DNA of 64,000 bases from an uncultured Alphaproteobacteria bacterium (GCA_944391465.1 CALXTS010000004.1:7942-71941); one strand, 5' to 3'. Shown: positions 14,901-54,057, counted from the stretch's first letter. Made by a program: numbers and translations. The notes: generated by a model from the sequence alone, not told the origin.

Positions 14901-16449
14901 AGGCCGTATTCATTACTAGATTTTGCTCAGAAAGGCTTCCTATCAGACCTTGCGTATTAACTGCATAAATAACATCAATTATTTTACCCAAAAGTTGCTG
15001 ATTTTCTCCGATTAAAAATCCTGAAGGTAAAATCTTGCCAACGGAATTTCCTTTAAAATTAACTTGTCCGTTGAAGTCTATCTGTCCACTAACCACACCA
15101 TTAGAGCTATAAACCGTGTTTAAACGGATAGCGCTTCCCGACAACTCACCTTCCGGTGTAAAAACGTATCCGTAAGGTGATACAACGTTGTTTCCGTTAT
15201 TCCCGCTTAATAAGCTGTTGATTCCATTCAACCCGAGTAATGTATTTTGTGCATTAAAAAGCAGGCTATTCCCCAAAACTGCACCAACCATACGACCGGA
15301 TAAATCGTATGCATCACGACCAACCATATAACCTGTCGGAGTTCCACTAAGATTAATAACGCTACCGTTTGAAAGCGCATGGCCTCTCAGACTTCCTTTA
15401 AAATCAAATATCGGGCCGGTTGCGTTCAGTTGTCCAACTTGTGAACCGTCTGCTCCGAAAATAACGCCGCGAGCTCCGACCAAAGCACTAACCTCTCTGG
15501 CTTTTGACAGATTTCCGTCCGGCATAACGCGGCCCAGATATTTACCTTTTAAATCTGTTGCCGTTGCCGCTATATCTACGCTATAACCAATGACATTCCC
15601 GAGATTGTCGACTATTTTTCCGTCAGCTCGCAGGTTCCCTAATAATTTCTCATTATCTACAACTTCTCCATTATAGGTTACAAAACCCATATAGAATCCG
15701 TTATTATCAAAGGCATAGCCTGATTTTACAATCCGTCCGATAATTTGATTTTCTGCGTTATATGCAAACCCATTAGCTTTAATTCTGCCTATGATATTTG
15801 AATCGAAATCGGATACCGCACCTCCTGGAACGACACTACCGATAAATTCTCCACCAAGCGACACAACCATTTTTGATGATATTAAACGACCATCTAGCAC
15901 ATATTCGGTTCCGAGTTGGCGGTATGCGTATCCGTCAGGTGTTACTATTCCTATTTGTTGTCCCTGAAGATTGGTATATAGACCATCTCCGGTAATACGA
16001 CCTATCGTTTTTCCTTCATCTGAATAAACAAGCCCCGGAAACAAAACTCCACCGATGATATCAAAGTAATCATTAACGACCAGTCCATTCGGTAAAACTT
16101 TTCCGACAATCTGCCCCGATGGAAGACGGACCGAGCCATCATTATTTACTTTTCCTAACAATTTAGCATCGTTACCGATGGCTATACCTTGCGGAATAAC
16201 ACCTCCAATCAGACGACCATCAAAATTAATAATCAAACTGTCTGCGGTAACATTTCCGATTAACTGATTATCAAATCCGACTACTTTACCATCAGGAATG
16301 ACTTTTCCTATTAAATCTCCATTAAAATCTATTGCCGTAATTTCTTGAGCTGAAAGAGCTTTGGTTCCAAATGATAAAAACAAACTTGCCGCGATCAAAC
16401 CTTTGATTGCAGTTTGGATTTTTTGAGATATCTTTAATCCAAATTTCAA
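11902..16449 (-). CDS. virB10: Giant VirB10/TrbI homolog (1515 aa) with a huge N-terminal repeat region
   Basis: The C-terminal ~300 aa (DNA ~12130-13000) look like the TrbI/VirB10 barrel: WRVDLSEMIFADKPIPAVIARAIDS, VIIPAGSRLMGT, ARVQISWERLIRPDGS, GDAQGRAGALGYVDQQ, MTYIPAGTRIIVYPNTDLWL. TTG start at 16449 is preceded by GGAGG embedded in the end of the upstream ORF. The N-terminus is signal-like, followed by ~950 aa of repeats, a Gly-rich segment and a Pro-rich tail. Confidence 0.9.
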   Translation of the reverse strand: MKFGLKISQKIQTAIKGLIAASLFLSFGTKALSAQEITAIDFNGDLIGKVIPDGKVVGFDNQLIGNVTADSLIINFDGRLIGGVIPQGIAIGNDAKLLGKVNNDGSVRLPSGQIVGKVLPNGLVVNDYFDIIGGVLFPGLVYSDEGKTIGRITGDGLYTNLQGQQIGIVTPDGYAYRQLGTEYVLDGRLISSKMVVSLGGEFIGSVVPGGAVSDFDSNIIGRIKANGFAYNAENQIIGRIVKSGYAFDNNGFYMGFVTYNGEVVDNEKLLGNLRADGKIVDNLGNVIGYSVDIAATATDLKGKYLGRVMPDGNLSKAREVSALVGARGVIFGADGSQVGQLNATGPIFDFKGSLRGHALSNGSVINLSGTPTGYMVGRDAYDLSGRMVGAVLGNSLLFNAQNTLLGLNGINSLLSGNNGNNVVSPYGYVFTPEGELSGSAIRLNTVYSSNGVVSGQIDFNGQVNFKGNSVGKILPSGFLIGENQQLLGKIIDVIYAVNTQGLIGSLSEQNLVMNTALNVIAKVLPDNSVATATRAETVDYMPKIGEAFSTRVVLNQTGGLVGYADINGQVNDVKGNTIGKIVERGLAVDTNGIVIGQLQDFGAVINGNCEVSGVVTPRGDVQNYRGVYLGKLLNNGIAISDSGSVIGFYNRPAPVIDFTGNIIGLSGLDGSVLNFNNEKIGCVDKYGNLRNQSGVLNGKTIEYLSAIDFGDKIIGYSILDGKIVDDKNVIIGYQQPSGNINSITGLPIGTLFKYRYAFSLDNRFMGRVLPNGSVVDDAQKTIGNVNFDGYVISNNQRAGYALYDLYIYDVNGNVLGYISRSGDVLSLSNQNIGKIDRGFLLDTDKKVIGRGNRDFYIRDKSRLVVGLLSLDGNVYDGNQAKIGTLEGNGDVKNLNGEVIAKATSLQYYSQVSAEAKRKMIFDKDGNFLGYLDENGNLVDANGNIIGRLDENGNIIGLDGNIKIKAEDGDIGNRPVYDKDGNLIGIADSTGIVRNAEGKIIGQVNEKGDVIDANGNIIGGISSNWYQKAPNYQAARSKQDEDNPALNLLESGDYKRSLGIALTPDGEYLGEILENNTVVDEDGEYLGRLMPDGLVIDDEGTLIGVKDIQSEEGAEKSQGGMFVPPGTFGKGGAYGIGVGPAGNLGPGGGYGPGERYSPARQAALNAAMSERRKNISVGKISSGVRKEAFDGMQKDWSEQGIGKVISSWRVDLSEMIFADKPIPAVIARAIDSNNPAPITAFVERNVYAEEGRNVIIPAGSRLMGTLGGVTASSEATSESARVQISWERLIRPDGSLFVFQGLTGDAQGRAGALGYVDQQLFKKYTLPIMTSTLTSATSYFMAPTSDTTGETETPRQQAANDARENFLNEMNQIFDEILADKSNIKPMTYIPAGTRIIVYPNTDLWLRTVERDQDESLNLQKPTVFIDDGKTGAERKANESNSIKQSAVSSANSDVVYDEGDVDAKPATPLVDTPKQTKKTTSTPPALVSAPPPPPSTPSYSDTSTTTTNSGVPALF
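13450..16330 (-). repeat. Coding tandem repeats, ~17-18 aa period (x-DG-x-V-x-D-xx-G-xx-IG-x-V), inside virB10
   Basis: Example: DGKVVGFDNQLIGNVTADSLIINFDGRLIGGVIPQGIAIGNDAKLLGKVNNDGSVRLPSGQIVGKVLPNGLVV. The pattern continues to DENGNLVDANGNIIGRLDENGNIIG. Boundaries are approximate. Confidence 0.8.
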
Positions 16450-16452
16450 GCT

Positions 16453-19400
16453 CTAGTTCCTCCGATTTTTGGCGACTTCCTGCAAAACATAGCCGGAGAC
16501 TTTCTTATCTAAGTCAATAAATGAACCGTTATTTTTTATGTGCCCTATGTTAACACCTTGTCTATCAATAACGTTTCCTTCGGCGTTTAATCTCCCTCTA
16601 TATTCACCATCATTTCCCAAAATAGTCGTTCCGATTTTAAATATTTTTCCTATGATATTGTCATTTTGATCAATTGCCAAGCCACTCGATAAAGTTCTAC
16701 CCAGAATAGTACCGTCTTTACCTGAAATTGTACCATCACGATTTACATAACCGACAACTTTATCCATATTATCTATCACAATATCACCAAACAAAACTTC
16801 TCCAATAAGTTTTCCGGCAACATTAATAACATTTCCGTCTGATAGAACTCTCCCAATAACAACATTGCTTTTACTGATAACACTTCCGTCCGGACGAACG
16901 GTCCCTATATTATTTCCGCCAAAATCTATGACAGACCCATGATGTAAAAGGCTTAAATTAATATCTGTCGAACCTCCGGGAAGGACAGCTGTTATGATAT
17001 CCCCTTTCATATCCATTACATCTCCCAGGGCGTTTAGCAATCCCTTATAATTTCCCCAAATATCAACCATTATATTTTCAGAAATAACTTCTCCGATAAC
17101 TTCAGATTTTGTATCAACCACTTTGCCATCATGTGTTGCAAAACCTACAACAGAACCTTTGGTGTCAATGATGCGTCCGTCTATTGATGCATATCCTATA
17201 TATGAACCATCATAGCCAATGGCGGCTCCTGTTTTAGCTACGCCCCCCTGATATTCTCCTTTGCTGTCTATAAACTGCCCTTTGGGGTTTATTTTACCGA
17301 GTTTATCCCCATAAATACTCAGTAGGGTTCCGTCATACTCACTATTTCCGACATAGCTTCCTTTTAGGTTCAATATTTTTCCATGAATTGCGGGCATTCC
17401 CAAACGGCCATTATAATATCCGTTTCCATCGCCTTTTATTTTTCCTTGCGATATACCTTTGGTATCGTAGATATTTCCGTCAGGGAACAAGGTTCCGATG
17501 AGATTACCATATGCATCGACAATCGCCGTTTTCGAATCCAGTGCCGTTCCTAAAATCTCATTATTTTTCCCGACGACTAAATTATTTGCCGTTAAGCGCG
17601 CAGACGGCTTTCCATAGATTTTAACTTCACCTCGATTATCAACTTTATTTAGATAGTTTCCATCTAAATCAAATGCATATTTTTCACCTACATATTTACC
17701 GATATAGGCTCCTTGATTATTAAATACCTCTCCGTAAATACCGACACAACCGACTGCTGTCCCTGCATCATTTATCACTAGGTTATTATCATCTATTTTT
17801 CCGAGGAAATAGCCGTCAAAATCAACAGCGGCTCCGCTCTTCATTATTGCACCGACAATATTTCCTTTTTCATCCAAAACGGTTCCGTCAGGATTCATAC
17901 AGCCAACATATTTATTGCTGGCATCTTTAACTATACCGCTACTGTCTGCTGTTCCCAATATCTTACATTTATTATCAAATACTTTACCGATTTTTGCAAC
18001 CTCTCCGATGTATTTCCCTTCCGAATCGGTAACTATTCCCTCAGGCGTTATTTTATGCCCCGTTTCCTGATTTCCTTTTTTTACTTTTCCGTCTTTATCC
18101 AGATACCCTATCTGTTTGCAGCCGTATCCGACAATGAAGCCTCCTCTGACCATTTTGGCTACAATACGAGAACCATTAGGCTCACGAACCAAACCATTGG
18201 GAAGAGTTCTGCCCACAACTTGTTTCAAATCATTCTCAACTGTTCCGTCATTTTGAACTGTTCCCAACAACATTCCCTGCGGAGTTATTGGAACTTTATT
18301 TAACGAAACAAGTTTTCCGATAATATTACCGTTTTCATCAAATTCGACTTCATCACCTACAAAGCCTATTACATTTCCGTTTAAATCGACTATTGTTCCG
18401 TCTTCTAGCATACGGCCAATAATGTTGCCATTTATATCTATCAGATTACCATTTTCATCGACATAGCCGATGATATTACCATCTTTATCATAAGCTACTC
18501 GAAGTTTCTTTCCTTTCAGCGGCGCTTTCTCTGAAATAACGTTACCGTTTTCATCAACCGTTCCGACAACATTACCATTGGCATCAACAACGCTGCCATC
18601 TGGCATGACAACGCCAATTACGTTTCCGTTTTCATCAATCGCAACACGCCCTGGTTTAGTTACATAGCCAATAACGTTTCCGTTCGCATCAACCACGGTT
18701 CCGTCCGGCAAAACCTTTCCAATAACGTTTCCATTTAAATCAACCACGGTTCCGTCCGGCAAAACCCTACCGATGATATTTCCGTCCTTATCATAAACAT
18801 ATCCGGTTTCAACCGCTTTTCCTATAACTTTACCATTTAAATCAACCACCGTTCCGTCCGGTAAAACTCTACCGATAATGTTACCGTCTTTATCAACAAC
18901 CGTTCCGTCCGGATTTACATAGCCGATTAAATTACCAAATTCATCATAGACAGCACGCCGATTTTCTCCAACACCTATGACATTACCGTCTTTATCCATA
19001 ATCAAACCATTTTCGCCAACGCGGCCGATAATATTACCATTGGCATCACGAACATAGCCATCTTCATCTATATAACCAATAACTTTTCCGTCCGGACCTA
19101 TGGCTAAACGTACGGTCTTTGGTTTTTCTCCGCTTCCTTCCGCCGTCATTCCCGGAACATTTTCGCAAATTTTGCAATCTTCTTTAACAACTGCATTTCC
19201 GGTAACCGGAACTTTTGTTGTTTTTGCATTTGAACTGCTTAAGCTAAGCTCATGCCAGGTAACCAAAAAATTGTTTTGCACATTGCCGGCAATAACCGGA
19301 AGCCACGTCATGCTGATATTGCAAGTTTCTTTTCCGGATAAACTTTTTCCACTACATTCATCCTTAAAAGTAAAACCATCCGCAGGAGGATCTGCCAACT

Positions 19401-23258: not shown

Positions 23259-26200
23259 CTAATATGTTGCGCAGAACGGCGTTTGTGATGCGTTCTTTCG
23301 ATTTTTCAGCCGTTCATTCGCATCTTCCTCATATTTATCCACTACCGTATTATTTACTTTAGATGATTTTAATTCTTCGTCAAGGCTATTATCATCTGTA
23401 ACCACATTGGAAATAACCGTTAACTCATCTTTATCTTTCTGCAACGCGGCTAAAATTCCTTTGTACTTATCTACTCTTTCCTTTACTACGCTGTTATTTT
23501 CCGTATTTATTGAATTTAGCTTAGTTAAAGCTGAAGATACTTTGCTGTTTTTAACACCATCTAATTTGCTTCTGGCTAAATTATAATCGCTTTGCTTTGT
23601 AATATCAAAATCTTCTGATGGTTCAAAGCCAAATTGGCTAAGCATAGAATACAAATCTGCCATCAGTTCATCATAACTTGCTTTGGTTTCTTCTACTTCT
23701 TTACGACGAGCTTGTTCATATTCAACATATGTGAGGAAATCACCTATTTGATTTTTTGCCAAAACCGCGTTTCTGTAGATAAGAGCCTGCTGTTTTTCTT
23801 TTGAACTCGGCTCTTTTTCCGACGTATCATCTTCATCTAAAAGGCTATGGAATGCGTCATAGGTTGTTTGGCGGAATGATATAATATTATTATCATCGGC
23901 ATCCAACAAAGTTCCTAACTCGCTGTAAGTGCAGTTATATGATGGTGCTTCTTCTTTTTCTTGTGCTTGATTAATCAAATCTTTTATTGATGTAAATTGA
24001 TTGAAATTAATTTCATTGTCAAACATCGTATCATAAACTTTGCCTGAGCGCATCTCTAGATACGGACAGTAATACAATGTTTGACCTTCGCTCTTACTTT
24101 TTATGAAATTGCCGCTCTTGCTAACATCAACAACAATATTTCCGCCTTTCACTCTACATGGCATAAATCCGCCTCTAAAGAAACTAACCGCGCTACACCC
24201 TTGATTTAACGCCTCCTTAAGATTGAAAACTTTTTCAACAAATGGCTTGTCCTGTAACATAAGTTTCCAAATTCCGGGCACTTCTCCTCCATAATTTAAG
24301 AAATCTGTAGCGGAAAGCGGTTCGCTTGTTGTGCGATTTTTATCATATGGTTTGGCATTTGAAAAATCCGTAGCATCAAAGTGTACGATTTCGCGCAGAG
24401 GCGGCAAATTATATTCCAACATTGCTTTGGGAGCTTTTAAATCTCTTTCTTTTGCCGGAGAACCTACAAAATAGGCCTCTGTTTCCGCCGTTACATCGGC
24501 TGTCGCTAAATTTTTGTAAAGATATAACGTTGTGGAAATATTCATCATGTTATATTTAATTGTCAGCGGCATAACCATAATATCCGCAATCATTCTTTGA
24601 TGAATTTCTACAATTTGCTCATGATATGCATTTAGATATTTCTTATCTCCGAGACTTTCGATTTCTTGTCTGGCTTGATTAATTCTTTTTTCTACTTTTG
24701 CATATAAGTCATCCAGAGCTTCGGAAATAATTTTATTTAGGCTTGCGACCATCGTAGCAGCTCCAATTCCGGTATATTGCATTCCCGGATTTTTCAGCGC
24801 AAAATCTTCAATCAATTTTGAAACAATATTATTGGCAATGGAGGTAATGCCCTTTTCGGCAGCTTGTGTAAACTTACTTAGCGCGGCTTCTTTTTCTGTT
24901 TGTGCCTGAGCGCTGTTTGCCGCTATCTTTGCCTTAAGTTTGCTGATTACAGAGCTTTGGCTTTTTTGACTGTCAAGTTTTTGCTGTGCTATTTTTTTAT
25001 CTAATGCTTTTAATTGCTCTTGTAAATTTTCAACCTCTCTTTGAGCCTCTTTAGCATCTTCTTCCAGCGTATCTAAAGAAGATGCGGCTGTATCTTGTTT
25101 TATCTTATTATCAATTGCGCTTTGCATCGAATCGGTTGTTTCCAGAGTATTTATGCTTCCGCTACCACTCGAAAATCCCGGAAATACGGCAACTGCATCT
25201 CGAACTGTCTGATTAGCATTCTCTTGAATGGATGTTCGTGTATCGTTAATTTCATCACTAATTCTTTTGTATTTTGCACTAGCGGTATCTATATCTGCTA
25301 CCAGTGAAGCTCTTTGTGACTCTAGTGAGGATAGTGTTTTATTTGATGTAGCCGTTAATGCTGAAAGCTCCGATGCCTTTTCTTCTTCTGCTTTAAGGTT
25401 GCTTAATGTCAATTCAGCGTCTAATCTATTGTATTCTTGTTGCTCTGATGTTTCTGAAATATCTGGAGTTTCGTCAAGTTTATCCGCATCGCTTTTTCCG
25501 CTTAACACATCTATCAATAATGATTTTACGTCGCTTACGGTATAAATCTTTAAACGCGCTTTAATATTCTCATATTTTCCATCTAAATACTGATTATAAA
25601 AAGTTTTAACATCATTCCATATTGGAAAAGACTGTTTAACACTTCCCCATTTCTCCGGATTTTCAAGTAATAATTTTGAGGCTTCAGAGCCTATTTGCCA
25701 TGGAATTAAATCCGTAGCCCGATTTTCTTCGGCTATTTGCTCTTCTTTACTGGCGCCAATTGTCGTATTTTCAGGAACACTCTTTGAAAAAGTTTCTAAA
25801 ACTTTTTCACTATCAGAAACATCGTTATATGTTTCATCCGTAGAAATGTCTATTGTCGGAGCGGCAATATCTTCCGTTGTTGCTGATGTTGTTTGTGCAG
25901 CCTTGGCTGTTTCATATGCTTCTATAGCCCATCCGGACAAACCGCTGCGCAAATCATATTCGGCAACATCATCTTGTGAAATTGAACCGCCATACCAAAC
26001 CGTGCTCGGATTAGAAAAACGCCTTCCCAGATAATTAATCACACATTTATCAGCTTCTCTTAAATACTCCAAAGCTTTTTCATATTCTGCCAAACTATCT
26101 TTATATGCCTCAGCCGCATCTTGATATCCTTTAAGGTTAACGATTGCATTGTGCGCATTTTGAGCTGTGGTTACTTCTTCTGTTATCGGTGCCAATTTGT

Positions 26201-27230: not shown

Positions 27231-28567
27231 ATCATACCCTCCAACATTTCTGGGTTACTTATTGTCCCTTTTAAGGCTTCTCCCGTATCTTTCAACTCAT
27301 TAGCCGCATCTATTGCTGCTGTGGCCTCATCTTTTATTGTACCTACTTTATCTTTTACATCATTATATGTACTTATGGCTTTATCAGTTTTATCTTTCAA
27401 ATCACTAACCGTTGATTTTGCGGAGCTGACTTGCCCCATTAAACTGGTATCTTTACTTCCGTACTCACTGTAATCACAAAGTTTGAATTTTGAATATTTT
27501 TTATTAACCTCTTTCGGGGTTAGTTTTGCCGCAGCTACCGTACTCTCTAAAATCAAATCATTAACAACCATCTCGGCATATTTATACAAAAGCTCTATCT
27601 CTTGTGTCATGACTTTTGTATGAACTCCCGATGTTTCTGATTCTCCCGGAGTTACTTTTGCTAAATTTTTGTTGGCATTAACTTCATCTATCAGTTTTGG
27701 TAGGGAGGCTTGTGTTCTTAAGGCTTTTTCATAAACATCGTATATGGCTTGCCTACGGTTGGAATAACGTTTTTCTTTCATGTCATTATTAGAAGCTATG
27801 GTTACTTTTTCTCCTGCTTGCAAAAAAATCTCATTCTTTGCGTTTTCAAGTGCCTCTGTCGGTACAGATAAAGAAATTTGCTCATCGCTATATAACTCAA
27901 GCATTCTGTTGCTCAAGGTTACAACTTTTTCGCCTTGATCTTTGAGCTTTTTATTATAGCTGTCTTCTAAATTGCCCTTGCTGTTATCAAGAGATTTTAG
28001 TTCTTGCTCTTGTTGGATTTGTAGATTTTCAATTGTTCTCTGGGCTGATTCTAATTCGGTATCGGTATAATCACCGCTATTTTGTAATTTAGACAGATTT
28101 TCTTGTGCTGCTGCAATCTTTTGAGCATATTTTTTCTCAATAACGCTTACCTGTTGTTCCAGTTCCTCTATTTTTTCTTTTTTCTCACTTTCAATATCTT
28201 TTAATTCTTTTGAGGCTGTTGCTATCTGTTTACTTATTTGCGCAGCTTTATACTCATTACTGTTGAGCACAGCGTTTTTATTGTCATTATAAAATTCCAT
28301 TGCGGCTTTATATTGGTCTTGAACAAATTTAAACCCATCTTTGGCTGCTTTAACTCCGTCTCCGACTAGTTTACCCATTTTAGAGCTACTAACCCATTGC
28401 ATTGCTTTCTCGCAGTTGGCTTTTATTTTACCAAACCATAAGCTCAAACGTGATGGGGTCTTCATTGTATCATTAACGCCGGCAATCTGCGCCTGAACTT
28501 CCGTCGCATAAAAAGGCGTTATTATAAGCATAACCATGATTCCGAAGGCTATAAAAACTTTTTTCAT
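27227..28567 (-). CDS. Secreted 446-aa coiled-coil protein, T4SS-associated, unknown function
   Basis: Signal peptide MKKVFIAFGIMVMLIITPFYATEVQAQ. Lys/Glu/Gln-rich helices. 4-nt overlaps with both neighbours. Confidence 0.7.
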   Translation of the reverse strand: MKKVFIAFGIMVMLIITPFYATEVQAQIAGVNDTMKTPSRLSLWFGKIKANCEKAMQWVSSSKMGKLVGDGVKAAKDGFKFVQDQYKAAMEFYNDNKNAVLNSNEYKAAQISKQIATASKELKDIESEKKEKIEELEQQVSVIEKKYAQKIAAAQENLSKLQNSGDYTDTELESAQRTIENLQIQQEQELKSLDNSKGNLEDSYNKKLKDQGEKVVTLSNRMLELYSDEQISLSVPTEALENAKNEIFLQAGEKVTIASNNDMKEKRYSNRRQAIYDVYEKALRTQASLPKLIDEVNANKNLAKVTPGESETSGVHTKVMTQEIELLYKYAEMVVNDLILESTVAAAKLTPKEVNKKYSKFKLCDYSEYGSKDTSLMGQVSSAKSTVSDLKDKTDKAISTYNDVKDKVGTIKDEATAAIDAANELKDTGEALKGTISNPEMLEGMI

Positions 28568-29058
28568 TTTTTATCTCCTTCTTCATCTGTCGGACGAGCC
28601 AACGGCAATATAGTTTCAACACCTTCAAGCAGCGATATTTTAGCCTCTAACTCAACTATTGAATTCAGACGTTCCGCAATTTTACTCAAATTCCCTTGAA
28701 TATCATTAGACAATACTTCATTTTTATTTTCAGAACCGCCAAGTTTGGATAAAAGACCATCTGCAGCACCTTCCGTGCTTGATTTTTTTGCATCATTTAT
28801 AAGTTTTACTCGGGTGGTCATAGCTGATGCATATAAATCTGAAGCCAAATCAAATCTTATTTGTTCCGACTTGGCATTAAATGCCATACCTCCTTCAATT
28901 CCGCCTTCATTCAACAGTGCATCGCTGATGCTATCTATATTGGCTCTGACATCATTAGGATCTTTGATAAATGAATAAACGTCTATTGCCAATGCTTCTT
29001 GTTTTAGGCACAACAAGGTAAGAATCAGAATAAAAATATATATCATTTTTTTACTCAT
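28564..29058 (-). CDS. Small secreted helical protein (164 aa); VirB5-sized but unproven
   Basis: Signal peptide IFILILTLLCLKQEALA. Predicted helical by composition. Overlaps its neighbours (translational coupling). Confidence 0.6.
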   Translation of the reverse strand: MSKKMIYIFILILTLLCLKQEALAIDVYSFIKDPNDVRANIDSISDALLNEGGIEGGMAFNAKSEQIRFDLASDLYASAMTTRVKLINDAKKSSTEGAADGLLSKLGGSENKNEVLSNDIQGNLSKIAERLNSIVELEAKISLLEGVETILPLARPTDEEGDKK

Positions 29059-30352
29059 GTTTTATTACCTCCGTTGTTGCTTGCAGATTTTTTCCGAAAA
29101 TTCGGCGGCGAGACACAGAATCCGAAACCTTATTCAAAATTACTGCTGAATCTTTTAATTTTTTACTTACATCTTCTTTGTTTTCTTCTGTTTTAATACT
29201 ATTTATTTGATTTTTCTTTTCTATTTGCATAAGTTGTTGCTCAAAACTGATGCTTGTTTGCGGCAACAGCTTTTCTTTGCTCTGACTTCCTTCCTCTTGT
29301 TTTATTTCTTCTGCTTGTTGTTTTATATCATTTACAGAAAGTTCCTGAAGAGCCATATTTTCCAGATTAGGTAATTCACCGGCTGTTTCTTTTAATTCAT
29401 CTCCGTCTATTACGCCTTCTTTATTTGCAACACTACTGATTGTATTTGCCCGTTCCAACAAATCATTTGATTGCTGAGACATGGTTGGTATTGTTAAGTC
29501 TTGCATAGAATCGCTCAAATTAACATTCGCACCTTCCGCCATACCTACATTTTGCGTTAATTCCGGAGAGGCATTTACCACCATTTCATTGCTCCCTCCG
29601 CTTGGCACAGAACTTGAACTCATTACATTCGGACTGCTTGCACTTATATCTGAGCTGTTGTTGCTTATTGATGCTGAAGGGACGGTAACTATATCTTCTC
29701 CACTGCTTTTACTGCTAAAAGGCGTTCTTTCGACTGCTGATGATACTTTATTTTGCGCCGCTGAAATTGCTGAACCTGCAGTATCTTTAAGCGCTCCTGT
29801 GGTTTCTTTCAGCGCAGAGGCCGTTTCTTTTGCATCATTAACGGCTGTTTTGGCATCTTCCACCATTCCTTTGGCTTTTTCATATTCTGCTTTGGCATCA
29901 TCAATATCTGATTTTATATTATTATATTCTTCTTTGGCTTCATTTATTTTATCTTGAACGTCATTTTTAAATTCAACGGCTTTTTCAACCTTATCGTTTA
30001 CCCAATCTTTGGCATCATTAATTTTATCTTTGGCATTATCATATTTTTCTTTTGCACTATCGTATTTTGCTTTAGCTTTATCTAACTTTTCTTTCATTTC
30101 TTTTGCTTTTTGAGCTCGCTTTGCAGCTTTTGATACCGCATTAATGTCTCCCAAAGCTCCGATTTTTCCGTTTATATAATTGGTTGCATAGCTTGCTATG
30201 TTTTCTTGCGCGGTTCCTGCCGCATTAACATAAACGGCAGCCGTGTCTATCGCATTAATTATCGGATCCGTTGAGGCGGCAAAGGCAATCCTTTCGTTAT
30301 AAAAAAATAACGAAATCAGAAAAAAAGCCGATATCAGAATTTTTTTTGCCAT
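29051..30352 (-). CDS. Secreted protein with LEA/apolipoprotein-like Lys-Asp-Ala amphipathic repeats (433 aa)
   Basis: The ORF track starts at 30415. ATG 30352 (MAKKILISAFFLISLFF...AFA) has an AAGGAAAGAGG SD and avoids overlap with the upstream gene. Repeats: DKAKAKYDSAKEKYDNAKDKINDAKDWVNDKVEKAVEFKNDVQDKINEAKEEY. Confidence 0.65.
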   Translation of the reverse strand: MAKKILISAFFLISLFFYNERIAFAASTDPIINAIDTAAVYVNAAGTAQENIASYATNYINGKIGALGDINAVSKAAKRAQKAKEMKEKLDKAKAKYDSAKEKYDNAKDKINDAKDWVNDKVEKAVEFKNDVQDKINEAKEEYNNIKSDIDDAKAEYEKAKGMVEDAKTAVNDAKETASALKETTGALKDTAGSAISAAQNKVSSAVERTPFSSKSSGEDIVTVPSASISNNSSDISASSPNVMSSSSVPSGGSNEMVVNASPELTQNVGMAEGANVNLSDSMQDLTIPTMSQQSNDLLERANTISSVANKEGVIDGDELKETAGELPNLENMALQELSVNDIKQQAEEIKQEEGSQSKEKLLPQTSISFEQQLMQIEKKNQINSIKTEENKEDVSKKLKDSAVILNKVSDSVSRRRIFGKNLQATTEVIKHE

Positions 30353-30362
30353 GCCTCTTTCC

Positions 30363-30971
30363 TTATTCCATATACTCATCCTCAATCTTGGCTGAGCTGT
30401 TACTGTTAAATTCATTTTGGCGATAATAATCTAGGGCTCTTAATGCCAATAATTCCGAATATGTGTCTATTATACCGACAATGCGTTCTCCGGTTAATGC
30501 CGTCAAATTAACATTTTCACATTGCCTACGATGTATTTTGCTACCTCCGTCTTCATCTCCGCCTATTGCTGAGGCTGCGTCCCCTACTGCGCCTCCCGAA
30601 TTATCTTTGCAATCATCTATAACTTTAGATATTTCATCTTTATAATCATCACTTTTTGAACGTTGTTGCAAAGACTTATACAGATATTCCGCATTTACCT
30701 GATGATATGCCTCATTAAAAAACGGATCATATTGAATATAACTTAATCCATCACTTTCTCTGAGGCGCAGAATTTTATTTAAACATTTTTTTACCGTGCC
30801 GTCCGTATGTATATCTGTTGAGGATATATCACAAAATAGGGCAAATTTCTTAGGAAATATCAAAACGCCATCGCTACCTCGGCCATTATCCTTCCCCAAT
30901 TGTGCAAAAGATTGTGGGGCATAAAATAATGCCATTAAAAAGACAGCAATTATTTTAAATGAAAATCTCAT
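30363..30971 (-). CDS. Secreted 202-aa protein, unknown function
   Basis: The ORF track starts at 31034. ATG 30971 (MRFSFKIIAVFLMALFYAPQSFAQ) follows GGAGGG and lies after the upstream stop at 30982. Confidence 0.6.
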   Translation of the reverse strand: MRFSFKIIAVFLMALFYAPQSFAQLGKDNGRGSDGVLIFPKKFALFCDISSTDIHTDGTVKKCLNKILRLRESDGLSYIQYDPFFNEAYHQVNAEYLYKSLQQRSKSDDYKDEISKVIDDCKDNSGGAVGDAASAIGGDEDGGSKIHRRQCENVNLTALTGERIVGIIDTYSELLALRALDYYRQNEFNSNSSAKIEDEYME

Positions 30972-30981
30972 TATCCCTCCA

Positions 30982-32679
30982 CTAATCTTCCGTTTGAGTT
31001 CTAAAATCATACTTTGAAATGTCGTAATTATCATAGCTTTCGAGCAATACTTTGGTTGTGTATAGCTTTAACAGACCACTGATTGTCGTTACTATTGTTT
31101 TATTGGTTTCTACTATTTGCGAATAAATATCTTTTGTCGTATCTGTTTGAGCAAAAGAAATTGACGGGACGATGTCATCGATCATTTTTTGCACATCTGA
31201 AAGTGCTTTATATCCCTCAACCATGTAAACTATTGCCAATTCTCTTTTCCCGTCATAATAATCTTGGCGAGGATTTTTAAATTCTTGAGAAAGTGCTCCA
31301 GACGAGGAATCATTTATTGAAACTAAGCATTCGTCAATGGCATATTTGTTTCTACCTGTACTGTTTAACGCTGTTTCAGATGTTAGCCCACAACGTTTGG
31401 CTATTGGCTTGGGAATAATAAAGTTCTTATTAATATCAGTTCCGTTATCCTCAAGGACTGCAAATTTTGCAAAAGCTAATTTACTATTTTGGGCTATTTT
31501 TGCTTTTCCTCTATAGCTTTCCTCATAAAAAGACATCTTATCTTTACTGAAAACTTTACGCGTCGGTGAGACTTCTAATGTCTTTTCTTGCAGTCTTTTC
31601 TGAATACTTTTGGTTGTATATGGATTTTCAATTACCTGTTTTGTTGCCGTATTTCCGGAATTTTGAATTGCTTGAATGCTGACGGCATTTCCTTTTAGTG
31701 TCGGAGAGTTTGCACTTGAAAGAGCACCTACATTATTGCTTATACTGACTCCGCCTACTCGATTAACAGCAACATTTCCAGCTTTTACAACACCTAAGGC
31801 ATTCTGCGTATTTAGGTTTACACTTCCAGTTATTGCTTTATTTTGGCTTATTTGACCAGTTGCCATGTTTCCGCTTGGTATTGCACCGACCATATTTTGT
31901 GCACCTAAACTTGCAACTCCATTTCCTGTTATTGCTTGCTGTGCCGTACTTCCTGCCGTATTATTAACTGCTAAAGCCTCATTATTTGCCGATGCTTGGT
32001 TTCCGCTAAATGCTACTCTGCTTGAGGTTGGAGAAACTGCTGAGTTTTCTTCTCCTCCCGTTAATGCTGTCCCACTGCTTGCTAATGTGCTTTCCGGTTG
32101 TAGTTCACCTGTTTCTACTGCTGATTCAGAATCTGCTCCACTTACAGACAAGCCGTTGGAACCTCCCTCTGATGAACTCCCTAAACCTGCTTTTTCTTTA
32201 ACACTGTTTATTTTACTGCTCGCAATATCTCCTGCAGCTGAAGCCATCTCTTTTGCCGCACCTACTGTTTCCGTAGCTTGTTCTTTTAAATCTTTGGCTT
32301 GTTGAATGCCGTCTTCGGCCATTTTTTTGTATTCTTCATACTCTCTTTTATATTCTTCATACTCTTCTTTATACTCATCTACCTGAGCTTTATAATCTTC
32401 ATACATCTTTTTCTTTTCGGCAATTTCTGCAGCTATGTCTCCGCCATATTCACTAATACTCTCTTTGGCTTCCCCAATTGCTGCGCTTGTCTTTTGAGCA
32501 AAAGATATGGTATCTTGCACTATCTTTAAGTCTTTTAAATCATTAAACCAGTTTTTGACATTATTTATACCGCTCTTAATGTCATTCGTTATCGCAAGAG
32601 CTTGAGATTCTGATATTTGTTGCGTTGTGGCACAGATAAACGCTATAAGAACTATTTTTGAAAACTGACCGATTTTCAT
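30982..32679 (-). CDS. Secreted 565-aa protein: coiled-coil N-terminus, Ser/Gly/Asn/Ala-rich middle, globular C-terminus (unknown function)
   Basis: Signal peptide IAFICATTQQISESQALA, then EYKEEYEEYKREYEEYKK, then a low-complexity stretch GNQASANNEALAVNNTAGSTAQQ. First gene after virB4. Confidence 0.65.
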   Translation of the reverse strand: MKIGQFSKIVLIAFICATTQQISESQALAITNDIKSGINNVKNWFNDLKDLKIVQDTISFAQKTSAAIGEAKESISEYGGDIAAEIAEKKKMYEDYKAQVDEYKEEYEEYKREYEEYKKMAEDGIQQAKDLKEQATETVGAAKEMASAAGDIASSKINSVKEKAGLGSSSEGGSNGLSVSGADSESAVETGELQPESTLASSGTALTGGEENSAVSPTSSRVAFSGNQASANNEALAVNNTAGSTAQQAITGNGVASLGAQNMVGAIPSGNMATGQISQNKAITGSVNLNTQNALGVVKAGNVAVNRVGGVSISNNVGALSSANSPTLKGNAVSIQAIQNSGNTATKQVIENPYTTKSIQKRLQEKTLEVSPTRKVFSKDKMSFYEESYRGKAKIAQNSKLAFAKFAVLEDNGTDINKNFIIPKPIAKRCGLTSETALNSTGRNKYAIDECLVSINDSSSGALSQEFKNPRQDYYDGKRELAIVYMVEGYKALSDVQKMIDDIVPSISFAQTDTTKDIYSQIVETNKTIVTTISGLLKLYTTKVLLESYDNYDISKYDFRTQTED

Positions 32680-32754: not shown

Positions 32755-35187
32755 TTACGCAAGATTTAAATATTTTGTAACAAAGTTTTCTTCACCGTAT
32801 TCTTTTATTAATTCTTCAACCAAAAGAACATTTTTGCGTCCGGAATTATATAGGCGCAAATACCTGCCGAGACCGCTTAAATCTACATCCAAAATAACAG
32901 ACTCTCCGGTTGCCGGGCGTGAAAGTAATATTGCATACGGAAAATCTCTATAACTCTTACCAAAGATAAAATCCGTTTCCGAATCTGTTAAATTCCAGTT
33001 GACATAATCTTCCGGCATAGCTTGCGGATTGCGGAAAAAGATTACCGTTTGGCATTGTCCGCGAATAACTTCTCCAACGCCTAGTTTATCAATAATATTC
33101 GGTTGTTGGAATGCGCACAAATAGGCTTGACGTTTTTTACGTCCCTCTTGTAATCCGATTGCAAAATAATCTCTAAACATCGGATGTTTTAACATTGGCG
33201 CCGTTTCATCAATCATAATTAGCGATGGTACTCCAGTTTCTCCGGTTTCTGACTGAATTCGGTGCATAATATAGCTGATAACCGCCGGAGCTAAAATTTC
33301 ATCTTCAAAAATGTGTGTGAAATCAAATGCCATAAAGCGTTTTGCTTTCAAATCCAAGCTATCATTTGTTGCATTAAAAATATTGCCATACTGATCAGGA
33401 TTTACCCATTTGAAAAGTTCGCGACGCATATTTCCCGTAGGAGAAAAGCAACTTTTGTACAAATTAGTCATCACGCGTTCTTCCGGACGAAGATAGTCAA
33501 ATGCCGTGGTTACGGCGCGTGCAATTTCTTTTTCCGATACCGCATCGTCAACCATGGTAATCGCACGCATCCATCTCCGCAAAAATGCTCGGTTATTCGG
33601 CGTATTCTCGCAGTCAAACGGATTTAAGGAAACATTTTTTTCGTCCCCCTCAAAACCGACATAGGCTCCGCCTATTGCTCTGGTAAATATTTCTGCACCT
33701 CGGTGGCGGTCAAAAAAGAATACTTTCAAATCACGGTGCCGCATGGCTTGTCCGGCAAGAAACGTCAGTAATGTTGTTTTACCTTGACCAGTCGGACCGA
33801 TAATACAGCAGTGTGCAACAGCGGAATCTTCTGATGAAACGTGAAACTGAAAACGATATGCCGAACCGGAAGTTGTTCGGAATACGGTAATGGCTCCCGG
33901 CCCCCAGTCACTCTTGCTGAAACCTTCTGAAGGGCGATCAAATGAAATTGCCGTTGCCACAACTCTGGAAAGATAACGATAGGTCCTTGGCAACATGTCA
34001 TATGTTGGAAATTGATTGAAGAAGGTTGCTTGTGTTACCCACCCTTCACGAACCGGCGTTACACTATATAAGCGGCAAATACGTTGGACTTCGCTTTCTC
34101 CGAAATCAAGTTCTTCCTTTGTATCTCCTTGCAAAATAATTGCCATCGCATACTCAGTTAAAGCCTGATGATTGGTATCACTATCTTCAATAGCGGCTAA
34201 AACTTCACTATATTGGTCAACAACGTCCCCCGAAAAACTAGTAGTGGCGGCCATTCTTTGTTGCTGCATTAATAACGCTCTGGCATGCGGCTTAAACATT
34301 GGCCGAATATTATGCAAAAGTGTTAATTCACAATCTATAGCCAAAAGCGAGGCGACCATTCCTTCATCCATGTAATCTCCGGATGAACGTATTCCCATGA
34401 CAATTTCAAATTTCTCTTTTGTTCCGGAGAAAAAGCGGATAATTCCGTCTTCTCCCGTAAAATGAATATGATCTGCCGTCAGCAATTCGTTAAGGTGTGC
34501 GCCTTCGGCACTGTTTATTTTAGGTTGCGGACGCGTTATCGGGCTGCATAGTTTGGCATATATTGATAACGGGCTGTCTTCTGCCGGCGAGCCTTCACTT
34601 TCATATAATGCGGTTACTCCATATTCATTCAAAGTTGCTATTAATGCCTGCGATGCATAATTCAAATCTTTAAGAGCTTCTTCTCTGTCCGCCACAGAAA
34701 GCACAATATAGTGTTTATTGCTAAACACTCTATCCAAATTTTCATGCCAGACTGCTGATATTTGCTTTAATAACGGATTTCCGAAATCTCCGCTTTCTGC
34801 CTCCAGAGGTATCCTTTCTCGCAATGTAATGACGCGACATATAACTCTTAAATCAGACAATCCGTCTATCCACGCTTTTCTTGCCTCCAGCATTGACATA
34901 ACTTTTTCATCAGTAACAAAGGATAAATCCATTCCTTCAATTCTGAAAACTCGCGCCAATGAGTTATTATAACAGCGGATTGTCATTCCATCTGATAATA
35001 TTTTATTAAACGGCAAAAAGTCAGATACCCGAGACTCTCGTGGCTGCGGCAGAACAAAATATCCGAGCTTTGTTGCCCAGAATCCGGCAAAAGCCGCCGC
35101 CGATATAAAACCGATGACCGCTACAATTACCTCAACGTTTGAAAGTCCTTGAACGAAAATACTGAAAAAATCAAAATCAGGGCGCAA
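32755..35187 (-). CDS. virB4: VirB4/CagE/TrbE-type T4SS ATPase
   Basis: 810 aa. Walker A GPTGQGKTT, Walker B-like LIMIDETAP, conserved FFRNPQA-type C-terminus. An N-terminal hydrophobic segment is present. Overlaps virB3 by 11 nt. Confidence 0.95.
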   Translation of the reverse strand: MRPDFDFFSIFVQGLSNVEVIVAVIGFISAAAFAGFWATKLGYFVLPQPRESRVSDFLPFNKILSDGMTIRCYNNSLARVFRIEGMDLSFVTDEKVMSMLEARKAWIDGLSDLRVICRVITLRERIPLEAESGDFGNPLLKQISAVWHENLDRVFSNKHYIVLSVADREEALKDLNYASQALIATLNEYGVTALYESEGSPAEDSPLSIYAKLCSPITRPQPKINSAEGAHLNELLTADHIHFTGEDGIIRFFSGTKEKFEIVMGIRSSGDYMDEGMVASLLAIDCELTLLHNIRPMFKPHARALLMQQQRMAATTSFSGDVVDQYSEVLAAIEDSDTNHQALTEYAMAIILQGDTKEELDFGESEVQRICRLYSVTPVREGWVTQATFFNQFPTYDMLPRTYRYLSRVVATAISFDRPSEGFSKSDWGPGAITVFRTTSGSAYRFQFHVSSEDSAVAHCCIIGPTGQGKTTLLTFLAGQAMRHRDLKVFFFDRHRGAEIFTRAIGGAYVGFEGDEKNVSLNPFDCENTPNNRAFLRRWMRAITMVDDAVSEKEIARAVTTAFDYLRPEERVMTNLYKSCFSPTGNMRRELFKWVNPDQYGNIFNATNDSLDLKAKRFMAFDFTHIFEDEILAPAVISYIMHRIQSETGETGVPSLIMIDETAPMLKHPMFRDYFAIGLQEGRKKRQAYLCAFQQPNIIDKLGVGEVIRGQCQTVIFFRNPQAMPEDYVNWNLTDSETDFIFGKSYRDFPYAILLSRPATGESVILDVDLSGLGRYLRLYNSGRKNVLLVEELIKEYGEENFVTKYLNLA

Positions 35188-35650: not shown

Positions 35651-38600
35651 TTATTGGGTCACAATATCTTCAATTTTTCCTTGTCTTGGTTTACCGTCTG
35701 CTCCAAGTAAAACTCGGCCTTTATTGTCGGTTACCAAAGGTATCGGACTACCATTTTCATCAAGAATCGGTTTTCCACTGTCATCTACCGCTACCGGAAT
35801 TTCATTACCATTTTTATCCAATACCGGCACACCTTTTTCATTTACAAGAATTTGGCGTTGTTCCTCCGTTTCATTTTGAGAATCTTTCAAACTCTGGAGT
35901 TGCTCAAGGCGGCGTTGGCGTGCTTCTCTATTTAATTGATCCGCATCTATGTCGCTTTGTCTTATACGCTCCTCAACCATAGCATCACCTTGGAGCATTT
36001 TCTGACGCAGAATTTCGCTTTGATATTCTTCTTGTCTTTGCTCGTTAAGTTTGGCTGCGGCTCTGGCTGCAGCAGCCTCTTGCGCTTGAAACTGACGGGC
36101 TCTTGAGGCTGTATCCGATGATGAGCCTTTTCCGGTATTGCTATAGCTTGCCCCTCCTGATGATGCTCGGAATACCGTTCCTGTAGATGAGCTGCTTACT
36201 CTTCCTGAACTATATCCCCTTGCCGTGGCACGTCCTGTCCATGAGCTAAATACTTTTTTCGGCGTATAGTAATATCCGCTGCTTCCGGTATGTTGTTCTG
36301 GTGTTGCCTCCTCTTCTTTACTGACAAGATTATCCTCAACATCTTCATCATTTTCTACTCTATCAGCAAGATTTCCTTTGTTAGGATCAAGTTCATCATT
36401 TTCCACCCTATCTGCAAAACTGCCTCCTGACGTATCAACAGGTTCGTTTTCAACTCTGTTGGCAAACTGATCTTTTGTTGTATCAACGGCTTCATTTTCT
36501 ACTCGATTGGCAAAATTATTTCCTGAAGTTGGATTATTTTTATTTGAAGTTGAACTTCCTGATGTATTATTTCCTCCAGAACTGCTCGTTCCCGAAGAGT
36601 TTCCTCCTGAACTTCCGTTATTTGAAGAATTATTTCCTCCGCTTACAAATGGGGTATCTCCATTGTTTGTTCCGTAGTTTGATTTTGGATTTTCAAGCTC
36701 GGCTTGGCGGGTTGCCTCTTCATAATAACGCATGTCAGCTTCATTACGGCGTTTAATTTCTTCATCTATTTTATTTTGAGCCGCTTGAGATTCTTGCTGT
36801 AACTTTTGGACTTCTTTATAAGCCTCCTGAGCTGCTAAAATACTCTCAGCATCATTCTTTTCTTTGGCAACTTTTACCAATTCATCAAGATTTTGTTGCG
36901 CAGCCTTTACTTTTGCGGCGGCAGCCGTTGCTTCTTCTCGTGCTGCCTGTATCGCAGCTTCTGCCGCAGCTTTTTCTTTTTTGGCGGCTTCTTGGTTGGC
37001 TTTTGCTTCTTCTATTGAGGCTTGACGTGCTTTTTCTTGAAGCTCTGCAACCGGCTTAGCCTTTTCTGCCGCTTCTTTCTTAGCGGCTGCCGCTTCTTGT
37101 GCTGCCAATTCTGCTCGTTTTGCGGCTTGTTCAGCTGCTCTTTTGGCTACCGGATCTCCGCTTTCTGCGGCGAGTTTAGCGGCTTCTTCTGCCTTTTTAG
37201 CTGCCTGTTCTGCTGCTCTTTCTTTTTGTGCGGCTTGGTTTGCGGCATTTTTAGCATCTGCCTCTGCTTTGTTTGCCGCCTGATTTGCCGCTTCTGCCTT
37301 CTTTGATGCAGTTTGGCTGGCTGCATATTGCTCTCTTAACCTTTGCGCCTCTTCTTCCGCTTTAGCTTTCTCCTGCTCTTGCTTTTGCAGTTCTTTTTCG
37401 GTTACACTATCTTGATCAATAACCTCATAATCCTTCATTGCCAAACCATTCATTTCTGCGTCTACTTTAGCAATAAATATATTGGCGTTATCAACCTTCT
37501 TTTTCTCAGATTGCAGTTCTTCTTCTTTTTCTTTTACGGCTTTTTGTTGTTTTGACAATGCTTCTTGCGAGGCTTTGTATTTTTCTTCTGCCTCTCTGGC
37601 TTTTGCAACATCCTCACTTGAACCACTGGCTAAAGCGGCTTCTCTTGCTGCTTCATATTCCTCTTTTGCTTTTTGTGTTTCAGCTGAAAGTTTCTCTTCC
37701 TGAGCTTGTTCATAGGCAATTGAACCTTCGACATCAGCACCACCGCTCAGTACTTTTATATTTTCTTCCGACTGTTCTTTTATTTTTTGTGCGGTTTCTT
37801 TAGACTCTGTTCTGGCGTTGTCTGCCAATTCTTGTAGAGGTTTTTTAGCTTCTTCCAATTTGCTGTTGGCCTTATCTGCCGCAGCTTGAGCGTCTTTCAA
37901 TTTATTATTGGCAGCTGTTGCTTCAGCTTCTGCAATATTATAACGGCTGGTATAAAGGCTACATTGGCTTGTGTTTCCGCTTTTGCAAGCCTCTTCTTTT
38001 TGTGCTTTGAGTTTTTCTGCCGTAGCATTTTTGCTGTCTGCCGTTGCTTGGGCATTCTTTAATGCAGTTTGCTTATTTGATGCATCTGATGCTGCAGCTT
38101 TGTATTGTGCCTCGGCTTCTCTGGCGGCTGCTACCGCATCTTTGGCTTTATTAACGGCTTGTTCAACCTCGGGGCCTCCGGTATTTTCCTCTTGGCGCTG
38201 TTGATTTAGCCATTGCTGATTCTTTTCCTCCTCCGCTTTGGCCTTTTGTTCTGCAGCTCTTTGTTCTGCGGCAGCTTTTTGTTCTGCAGCTTTTTGCTCG
38301 GCTGCAGCTTGCTGTTTTGCCTCCTCTTTAGCTTTTTTCTTATCGGCTATACTATCATTGATTGAACCGTCTTTACCCAAAACCTTACCAACCAAATCAG
38401 AATTTCCGATTGTTGAGGCGATAGATGATACGTTTTTAACATTATCTTGTAATACGGAATTTGCTTTAGAGCTCGTGTCTTTTATTGCATCTGCCGTATC
38501 TTGAATTTTACTTACAATATTATCATCTTGGGCAATTTCCCCACCATACAGACGTTCTACTTGTCCGTCAGCTCCGACAGTTTGTCCTTTTAAGAATCGG

Positions 38601-44696: not shown

Positions 44697-44751
44697 TAAG
44701 TATCTATCGCGCTTGATTATTTAATTTTCAGTATGTATGATAAGGAAAAAT

Positions 44752-47086: not shown

Positions 47087-47106
47087 CGTATCTGAGGAGA
47101 TAGTCT

Positions 47107-51513: not shown

Positions 51514-51524
51514 GGTGATAAAAA

Positions 51525-52646: not shown

Positions 52647-52647
52647 A

Positions 52648-53250: not shown

Positions 53251-53280
53251 TAACTAAAGACATATTTTATCTAAATATCC

Positions 53281-53323
53281 TTACTATTGACATAATTGTT
53301 CATTTTTTATTAATTTGTTATAG
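53281..53323 (+). promoter_or_regulatory. Conserved 43-bp upstream element of pilin gene 1 (candidate promoter)
   Basis: TTACTATTGACATAATTGTTCATTTTTTATTAATTTGTTATAG aligns without gaps to 54058-54100 and 54844-54886. It contains TTGACA and a TAATTT box about 18 nt later, and ends 39 bp before the ATG. Confidence 0.45.
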
Positions 53324-53361
53324 TTATAGTAAAGGGTAACAGAAAGTTAGGGAGAGAAACT

Positions 53362-53979: not shown

Positions 53980-54001
53980 TACTTTCTCAGATTTCTTTAC
54001 C

Positions 54002-54034
54002 AGAGCAACATTTGTTTGATGTTGCTCTTTTTTG
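54002..54034 (+). terminator. Rho-independent terminator after pilin 1
   Basis: AGAGCAACA (54002-54010) pairs with TGTTGCTCT (54020-54028), then TTTTT. Confidence 0.75.
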
Positions 54035-54057
54035 TTGAGGAAAATTTGCTGATGTTA

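Follow-up and report, generated by a model that had tools for sequence, protein, structure and literature searches.

Proteins of the VirB5/TraC/TrwJ/TrbJ family (PF07996) form the pilus tip and stalk of VirB-type type IV secretion systems (T4SSs), and their role in conjugative systems is established for R388, pKM101 and Agrobacterium. T4SS biology has been built on a handful of model systems, where VirB5 is small and present as one protein. In the enlarged cag T4SS of Helicobacter, whose VirB10 (CagY) carries repeats, CagH, CagI and CagL are adjacent small secreted proteins, one of them being a functional VirB5 analogue. Here we describe six consecutive genes, referred to as T1 to T6, from a 64,000-nucleotide stretch of an uncultured Alphaproteobacteria bacterium (GCA_944391465.1, CALXTS010000004.1:7942-71941); this whole stretch is called the window below. 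The six genes fill the space between virB4 and virB8 of a VirB-type operon and form an integral part of its T4SS. The first and fifth probably encode diverged and enlarged VirB5 homologues, while the sixth represents an undescribed protein family.

The closest described parallel is the Trw T4SS of Bartonella, which carries tandemly amplified trwJ/virB5 and trwL/virB2 genes, has no coupling protein and serves in erythrocyte adhesion, with TrwJ and TrwL being variable outward parts on a conserved engine (PMC2883598). The locus described here resembles Trw since its VirB2-like genes number three and neither a coupling protein nor a relaxase is encoded within 64 kb; likewise, several VirB5-like genes and the VirB2-like genes stand together in one locus and evolve much faster than the core. 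On the other hand, the paralogues of this locus are old, have diverged far and show shuffled domains, whereas those of Trw arose recently by tandem copying; there is no co-amplification of VirB6 and VirB7; T6 and an 1877-amino acid (aa) pilin fusion have no Trw counterpart, and an adhesive role is proposed here by analogy. With the cag system the locus shares a cluster of adjacent secreted proteins on an enlarged T4SS, but there is no sequence similarity and no C-terminal motif common to T1-T6. Searches of PDB sequences with the block profiles did not return CagL, and its rank of 32 (E 1.9) in a Foldseek search with a low-confidence T1 model is meaningless.

Organisation and distribution of the block

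The T4SS is encoded by one long minus-strand unit which runs from about 42.5 kb to 10.9 kb of the window. It opens with virB2 (115 aa), a 213-aa VirB2-like gene, the gene of the 1877-aa protein, a 96-aa VirB3-like gene and virB4. T1 to T6 come after virB4 and are followed by virB8, a 62-aa lipoprotein gene, a second virB8 and virB9 with a SPOR domain. The unit then continues with a 1113-aa beta-flower/RHS-repeat protein, a 1515-aa VirB10 (beta-flower repeats and TrbI) and virB11.

The six minus-strand open reading frames (ORFs) of the slot were numbered from the virB4 side toward virB8 (Table 1). An earlier reading of the window from its sequence alone (the sequence-only reading) had placed six genes of these lengths between virB4 and virB8, and this was borne out, the lengths of T2 and T3 holding if translation starts at the second ATG. 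Both second ATGs have a GGAGG-like ribosome-binding site upstream, with the signal peptide opening directly after, and such a site precedes every chosen ATG of T1-T6. Independent gene calls on sister contigs gave 202 aa for T2, 433/423 aa for T3 and 160 aa for T4. The three junctions that had been read as overlapping by 4-8 nt are T5/T6 (4 nt), T4/T5 (4 nt) and T3/T4 (8 nt), and they drop to two if T4 starts at its 160-aa ATG; gaps of about 10 nt each separate T1 from T2 and T2 from T3.

As proposed in the sequence-only reading, all six products carry a signal peptide and no further membrane helix: in a heuristic Kyte-Doolittle scan each showed a single N-terminal hydrophobic segment with an AXA-like cleavage motif behind it, and the rest of the protein gave no membrane helix. 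Lys, Glu, Asp and Ala together make up 30-39% of the residues of T1-T6, and the two peptides quoted in that reading were located in T3 and T1. Its description of the set as mostly coiled-coil was slightly overstated. A simple heptad scan found heptad-like segments over 38% of T1, 40% of T3, 51% of T5 and 31% of T6 (shuffled sequences, 9-20%) and none in T2 or T4. The GC content of the block equals that of its flanks.

We examined the distribution of the block in two ways. A species scan seeded with T6, using one genome per species, yielded 60 loci, nearly all from metagenome-assembled genomes named uncultured Alphaproteobacteria, "Azospirillum sp." or Candidatus Scatocola, the latter standing under Rhodospirillales in the NCBI taxonomy. 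The named sources were human, deer, horse or chicken gut. Wherever these loci include virB4, genes fill the space from it to T6, in one of two architectures: T1-T2-T3-T4-T5-T6 in the clade of the window and G1-G2-G3-T6 in the other clades. The two correspond gene by gene, as hhalign comparisons paired T1 with G1 (E 1.5e-43, full length), T4 with G2 (98.9%, E 3e-17) and T5 with G3 (99.8%, E 2e-29); the ancestral block therefore had four genes, T1, T4, T5 and T6. One locus with the full T4SS block (L039, CAVIWQ010000001.1) is recorded as "Bacteroidaceae bacterium", which is probably a binning or labelling error.

Since a T6-seeded scan is blind to loci without the block, a VirB4-seeded scan of metagenomes (40 loci) was added, in which the downstream ORFs were labelled by family hidden Markov models (HMMs). 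At least about 290 nt follow virB4 in 35 of the 40 loci, and T1/G1 is the first gene in all 35; T6 is present in all 17 loci that are long enough to reach its position. None of the 40 loci that have downstream DNA lacked the block. Thus, the block accompanies the core genes in all 60 T6-seeded loci that include virB4 and in every informative VirB4-seeded one, as the sequence-only reading had expected of genes specific to this T4SS, and it is an integral part of the machine and not an insertion. Orthologous T4SS loci without the block, which that reading had raised as a sign of a hitch-hiking insertion, were looked for through the VirB4 seeding and not found; homology to housekeeping periplasmic proteins, which it had also raised, did not appear in Pfam, NCBIfam or PDB-sequence searches. 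We found no literature on T4SSs in this gut lineage. The locus is a lineage-wide, apparently chromosomal T4SS of uncultured gut Alphaproteobacteria, whose VirB5 position has expanded to a set of large, rapidly diversifying secreted proteins.

Relationships of the block proteins

T1 starts 75 nt past the virB4 stop, and the same arrangement is found in all related loci and in their plasmid relatives; the nearest plasmid systems have a Pfam-positive VirB5 encoded right behind virB4. Sequence comparison makes T1 and T5 probable homologues of VirB5 that have diverged and grown in size, T1 being the probable orthologue. With the VirB5/TraC/TrwJ/TrbJ family the block shares the position right after virB4, the Sec signal, an IPxxD-type mature N-terminus and a long helix. 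The proteins on both sides are helical and soluble and evolve fast, and T1/G1 and T5/G3 give moderate profile matches. They differ in size, T1/G1 having about 300-800 aa and T5 446 aa against about 230 aa (two to three times as large), the block proteins containing a coiled-coil insertion and a spacer of low complexity. In addition, several paralogues and the split copies T2 and T3 are present here, the Pfam threshold is not reached, and a shared fold, which in TraC and TrwJ is a three-helix bundle with a globular appendage, is putative.

The mature N-terminus of the T1/G1 family opens right behind the signal peptide with the motif (I/W/L)P(T/V)xD, and IG follows about 35 residues on. The D is invariant, and P-T/V two positions ahead of it is near-invariant. 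The consensus of the family, A.A..PT.D...I, stands beside a.a.iPV.D in VirB5, the VirB5 proteins of nine plasmids being arranged alike, and position 1 of the PF07996 profile maps onto the site of this motif. In the shortest G1 (L063), PF07996 was matched over its profile positions 1-40 at the mature N-terminus with E 0.021 and 15.7 bits (cut-off 24.7), and DUF4141 gave a sub-threshold match at the mature N-terminus (E 8.7e-4). Weak DUF4141 matches (E about 1e-3) lie on the signal peptide and mature N-terminus of 4 of the 30 T1/G1 members, including L063:6080-7168 and L060:6707-7924, and may reflect the same VirB5-type N-terminal motif; papers that mention DUF4141 deal with Bacteroidetes. Apart from DUF4141, Pfam scans of the individual T1/G1 members gave noise, and PF07996 was not one of the families matched by several members. 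With E values up to 1 allowed, T1-T6 of the window gave no PF07996 match.

For the profile comparisons, run with signal peptides removed, the genes after virB4 of nine plasmid T4SSs, found with the VirB4 of the window, served as VirB5 reference; one of them is Pfam VirB5-positive. The best PDB match of this nine-sequence profile was TrwJ, the VirB5 of R388 (E 5.5e-4), and a tblastn search of plasmids with the Erythrobacter VirB5 returned two records. Among 2026 ORFs searched with the VirB5 profile, G3 and G1 members matched best (E 8e-6 to 7e-4), the VirB5 HMM giving E 8e-6 and 2.7e-5 on G3 members. Several G1 members matched collinearly at both ends (C-terminal half, E 1e-5 to 7e-4), as expected for a VirB5 carrying a large insertion. 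In the opposite direction, the G1 N-terminal profile ranked proteins at the VirB5 position on top of 951 plasmid ORFs (E 2.8e-4 and 1.6e-3). With hhalign, VirB5 was matched by the G1 N-terminus (T1 residues 30-165) at 73% and E 3e-5 (reversed control 0.2%), and by G3 at 76.5% and E 2e-5 over about 190 columns (reversed 0.3%). T2 and T3 gave nothing against VirB5. The suggestion in the sequence-only reading that one or more of the genes may replace VirB5 thus gains moderate support for T1 and T5 from position, N-terminus and hhalign scores against reversed controls, and none for T4.

The plasmid relatives place these relationships in time. The T4SSs of plasmids from Erythrobacter aureus, Sphingosinicella and Microvirga have the closest plasmid VirB4 (36-39% identity) and share the order virB2-B3-B4-[VirB5-like genes]-B7-B8-B9-B10-B11 with the window. 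They hold two tandem VirB5-like genes, of which the second encodes 422-453 aa without a membrane helix and matches VirB5 by hhalign at 95.8% (E 7e-9; reversed 0.1%), and a membrane VirB6 is already missing from their slot. Since the plasmid relatives show both features, the tandem VirB5 duplication and the slot free of a membrane VirB6 predate the gut lineage. On the other hand, the plasmid systems, which are conjugative or mobilisable, encode a coupling protein and a MobA/MobL relaxase next to virB11; they have no T6, no G2/T4 equivalent and no giant pilin, and their first VirB5 is of canonical size and Pfam-positive. The gut lineage later gained G2/T4 and T6 and inflated its VirB5-like genes. 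The second plasmid genes (L070:19932-21218, L071:19288-20649 and L073:8289-9557) occupy the usual VirB6 position and are annotated as hypothetical proteins.

Within T1, heptad-like sequence covers residues 23-164, and AlphaFold2 places helices at residues 24-67 and 79-163 (overall predicted local distance difference test score, pLDDT, 38.6). The spacer that follows has no secondary structure in the model (pLDDT below 30), and the size range of the family, 301-809 aa, comes chiefly from this region. Mature T2 matches the T1/G1 C-terminal domain with 98.7% and E 1.9e-16 by hhalign (reversed control 0.1%) and keeps its cysteine pair. T2 and T3 occur only in the clade of the window and are missing from the three-gene clades. 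T2 is, by these sequence criteria, a lineage-specific, stand-alone partial duplicate of the T1 C-terminal domain. T3 is probably a partial duplicate of the coiled-coil stalk of T1: its residues 36-208 are heptad-like, and residues 108-218 match T1 residues 35-172 with a BLAST E of 2.5e-9. The link was graded no higher because hhalign gave 97% for T3 against the stalk and 94% for the reversed control, composition thus confounding the comparison. The six genes are therefore not six independent inventions, T2 being derived from T1 and T3 probably so. Profile searches of PDB sequences with T2, with the T1 N-terminus and with T5/G3 returned coiled coils only.

T5/G3 (446 aa in the window) is an ancestral member of the block with a coiled-coil insertion. 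T4/G2 is ancestral too, and is small, conserved, helical and secreted; it had no Pfam or PDB match, and per-member Pfam scans gave noise.

T6 is an undescribed protein family without annotation or structural relative, and a truly new element of the locus. Its relatives form 19 clusters in a collection of 5.8 billion proteins, down to 27% identity, and a single-sequence search among 1.84 billion proteins gave 254 representative clusters. It is single-copy in every locus and uniformly 1200-1850 aa long. Conserved N- and C-terminal regions enclose a central coiled coil, a small beta region is present, and the protein is nearly all helical; conserved motifs and cysteines include an invariant C-terminal P-x-C-A-x-Y. 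In the AlphaFold2 model of residues 124-1323, which is of medium confidence (pLDDT 64.7), almost everything apart from a small beta region consists of long helices. No sequence relatives were found in Pfam, NCBIfam or PDB, and the longest variants also had no Pfam domain. An apparent hhalign relationship of T6 to T5/G3 (81%) was discounted, as the reversed control reached 15% with a high raw score, which is attributable to coiled-coil composition.

No member of the block is VirB6-like. All lack membrane helices after the signal peptide, and hhalign against proteins at the VirB6 position gave at most 0.3%; the six genes do occupy the VirB5/VirB6 slot, as the sequence-only reading had it, but the VirB6 half of that description does not hold. 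Its further statement that VirB6-like genes are displaced to elsewhere in the window stands for one candidate (Table 1), with a weak sub-threshold TrbL match, and no further candidate was verified.

Rates of change and possible roles

The block changes much faster than the machine around it. Across eight related species, VirB4 keeps 85-92% identity, VirB3 72-92%, VirB8a 63-82% and VirB9 70-83%, and the core as a whole 61-92%, against 21-56% for T1-T6. Compared with a 98%-identical strain, the amino-acid-changing rate (dN) is zero in VirB3, VirB4, VirB8a and VirB7, while the ratio of dN to the synonymous rate (dS) in the block is 0.13-0.59 where measurable, T6 being highest. Against a strain of 77% identity, block genes have dN values of 0.16-0.45 and core genes of 0.03-0.08, and overall the amino-acid change in the block is 3-10 times that of the core. 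In T6 the change is concentrated at the mature N-terminus: 24 of the 30 amino-acid differences from the 98% strain fall inside residues 35-84, a patch that is poorly conserved family-wide too. In the same comparison (strain L119), dS is 0.10-0.18 in T5 (27227-28567) and in VirB8b with VirB7 (21460-22387), about ten-fold the 0.01-0.03 of their neighbours, which suggests short recombination imports within the operon.

Our preferred explanation, to which we give about an even chance, is that the six genes encode the outward-facing, Sec-exported, non-membrane end of a chromosomal VirB-type machine used for contact or adhesion, by analogy with Trw. T1 would be a VirB5 orthologue that retained its N-terminal helix and C-terminal head and to which a stalk of coiled coil and a long, flexible spacer were added, and T5 a second VirB5-like paralogue. 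Beside these putative tip or adaptor proteins, T2 would add an extra head module and T3 an extra stalk module, T4 would be a small conserved helical partner, and T6 a lineage-unique helical scaffold or fibre of some 1,300 residues with a hypervariable mature N-terminus. If VirB5 is a guide, the proteins may assemble in the periplasm on the stalk and nucleate or cap the VirB2 fibre, and would finally come to be exposed and mediate contact. A conserved engine with variable outward parts and no nearby coupling protein is a pattern that marks a contact or adhesion organelle on which diversifying pressure acts. Should this reading be right, the bacteria interact closely with the cells of a host or with microbes around them, and the locus would offer a natural series of VirB5 elaborations for the study of how T4SS tips are built.

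Several observations weigh against this explanation. No block protein reached the curated thresholds of Pfam or NCBIfam, where only coiled-coil noise appeared. The T1 motif of the window itself is degenerate (AITND), and the G1 C-terminus matched VirB5 weakly (hhalign 11%, reversed 0.1%). A reversed-sequence HMMER control reached E 1.4e-4, about ten-fold worse than the best true matches. T6 showed no VirB5 signal, and T4/G2 was tried as VirB5-like and rejected (hhalign 2.8% against 2.3% reversed). Structure was of little help: the AlphaFold2 model of T1 (pLDDT 38.6) drew on an alignment of 8 sequences only and is unusable, Foldseek with this low-confidence model gave no match with E below 0.6, and T6 gave nothing with E below 1e-3 in Foldseek, the listed proteins being SMC, MukB and like coiled-coil noise. 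The fast evolution of the block could come from relaxed constraint on coiled coils and not from surface exposure, and its overall dN/dS is below 1. Finally, a coupling protein could lie elsewhere in the genome, the scan having covered the 64-kb window.

The same proteins could instead be extra subunits of the core complex, building a scaffold, ring or cage in the periplasm or at the outer membrane and not forming part of the surface or pilus, as Cag3, CagM and CagT do in Helicobacter and DotF and DotG in Legionella. The enlargement of the whole machine fits this, with its 1515-aa VirB10, the 1113-aa beta-flower/RHS protein, the SPOR domain of VirB9 and the duplicated VirB8, and so does T6, which is long, helical and always single-copy; the gene overlaps, moreover, suggest stoichiometric co-production. 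Yet the core-complex proteins of this locus are highly conserved and the block is not (61-92% against 21-56% identity), a hypervariable patch in T6 and low-complexity spacers of variable length are unusual in buried scaffolds, and the VirB5-like signals of T1 and T5 indicate stalk or tip. We regard a core-scaffold role as unlikely. Export of the six as cargo, reaching the periplasm through Sec and leaving through a T4SS free of a coupling protein in the way that Ptl exports pertussis toxin, seems to us quite improbable. Sec signals on all six, the lack of a coupling protein or relaxase within the 64-kb window and an evolution as fast as that of secreted effectors would suit such cargo, but every related locus has these genes within the operon, after virB4 and ahead of virB8 and with junctions that overlap, and four of them form a fixed syntenic set across about 60 species. 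T1 and T5, moreover, resemble a known machine component, and none of the six has an enzymatic or toxin domain.

That unrelated periplasmic genes might have hitch-hiked into the locus as an insertion, or that the block might be a run of spurious low-complexity ORFs, is suggested by the absence of family matches for all six. This is contradicted by the identical position of the block in every orthologous locus examined, the VirB4-seeded ones included, by the ribosome-binding sites, by conserved families with invariant residues, by dN/dS below 1 and by a GC content equal to that of the flanks, and we consider it extremely improbable. A bolder version of the preferred contact or adhesion role is that T6 and its partners form a new extracellular fibre or contact device, in which a helical T6 with a swappable hypervariable tip is mounted on enlarged VirB5-like adaptors. 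We put this forward as a speculative and unlikely extension; if true, it would define a new functional T4SS subclass for host-cell or microbe contact in this lineage of gut Alphaproteobacteria.

Coordinates and neighbouring genes

Table 1. Positions of the block genes, their regions and other features of the window
Feature	Position	Strand	Description
T1	30982..32679	-	565 aa; first gene after virB4
T1 VirB5-like N-terminal helix, then K/E-rich coiled coil	32185..32592	-	residues 30-165
T1 Ser/Gly/Ala/Asn-rich low-complexity spacer	31495..32184	-	residues 166-395; length differs by species
T1 C-terminal domain	30985..31494	-	residues 396-565; invariant C430 and C451; two long helices
T2	30363..30971	-	202 aa; ORF reaches 31034
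T3	29051..30352	-	433 aa; ORF reaches 30415
T4	28564..29058	-	164 aa
T5	27227..28567	-	446 aa
T6	23259..27230	-	1323 aa
T6 hypervariable patch, mature N-terminus	26979..27128	-	residues 35-84
virB4, upstream slot boundary	32755..35187	-	Pfam CagE_TrbE_VirB, E 5e-13; 85-92% identity in related species
virB8 paralogue 1, downstream slot boundary	22487..23242	-	Pfam VirB8, E 5.5e-16
virB8 paralogue 2	21460..22197	-	
Lipoprotein gene, probably virB7	22199..22387	-	62 aa
Enlarged core complex genes	11902..21452	-	VirB9, 1113-aa protein, VirB10
Giant pilin fusion	35651..41284	-	1877 aa
VirB6 candidate	1025..4081	+	1018 aa; six hydrophobic helices; TrbL/VirB6, E 1.3e-4, 22.3 bits (cut-off 25.9)
Acidic protein gene	5339..7837	+	832 aa
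Type IVb pilus cluster	42900..56311	+	

The two VirB8 paralogues share only 36% identity, and both are kept lineage-wide. The ORF between them encodes a lipoprotein with the lipobox LSGC and two more cysteines, which has the same size and the same place in all related loci and is probably VirB7. In the enlarged core complex, VirB9 bears a SPOR (peptidoglycan-binding) domain at its C-terminus, the 1113-aa protein after it has beta-flower and RHS-type repeats, and beta-flower repeats precede the TrbI domain in the 1515-aa VirB10.

The 1877-aa protein is a giant pilin fusion. The giant VirB2-like protein of the sequence-only reading was recovered in it, a VirB2-like segment being found at residues 539-685 (BLAST E 3e-12 against the 115-aa VirB2) in a protein whose K/E/D/A content is 43%. 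It begins with a signal peptide and a K/E/A-rich helix of about 600 residues with paired cysteines, which lead to the pilin-like segment, and continues with about 1200 helical and Ser/Gly-rich residues. Its evolution is very fast, and no more than 8-23% of its length can be aligned with related species.

Among the window ORFs scanned with Pfam, every ORF above 500 aa included, none had a coupling-protein (VirD4) or relaxase domain. The locus looks chromosomal because chromosomal-type genes, gpsA and an M20 peptidase gene, lie near 57-62 kb. The interval from the VirB6 candidate to the end of the T4SS operon holds the gene of a very acidic protein (net charge about -81), in which no signal peptide, membrane helix or family match was found; it could be an effector or an accessory protein. 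On the other side, divergent from the T4SS, stands a type IVb pilus cluster with TcpQ, secretin, PilO, ATPase, platform protein and PilS/bundlin-type pilins. Four of its pilin genes are tandem paralogues of 75-100% mutual identity, p208 and p215 being identical over 206 aa, and in a distant relative (L007) the T4SS likewise adjoins a pilus cluster.

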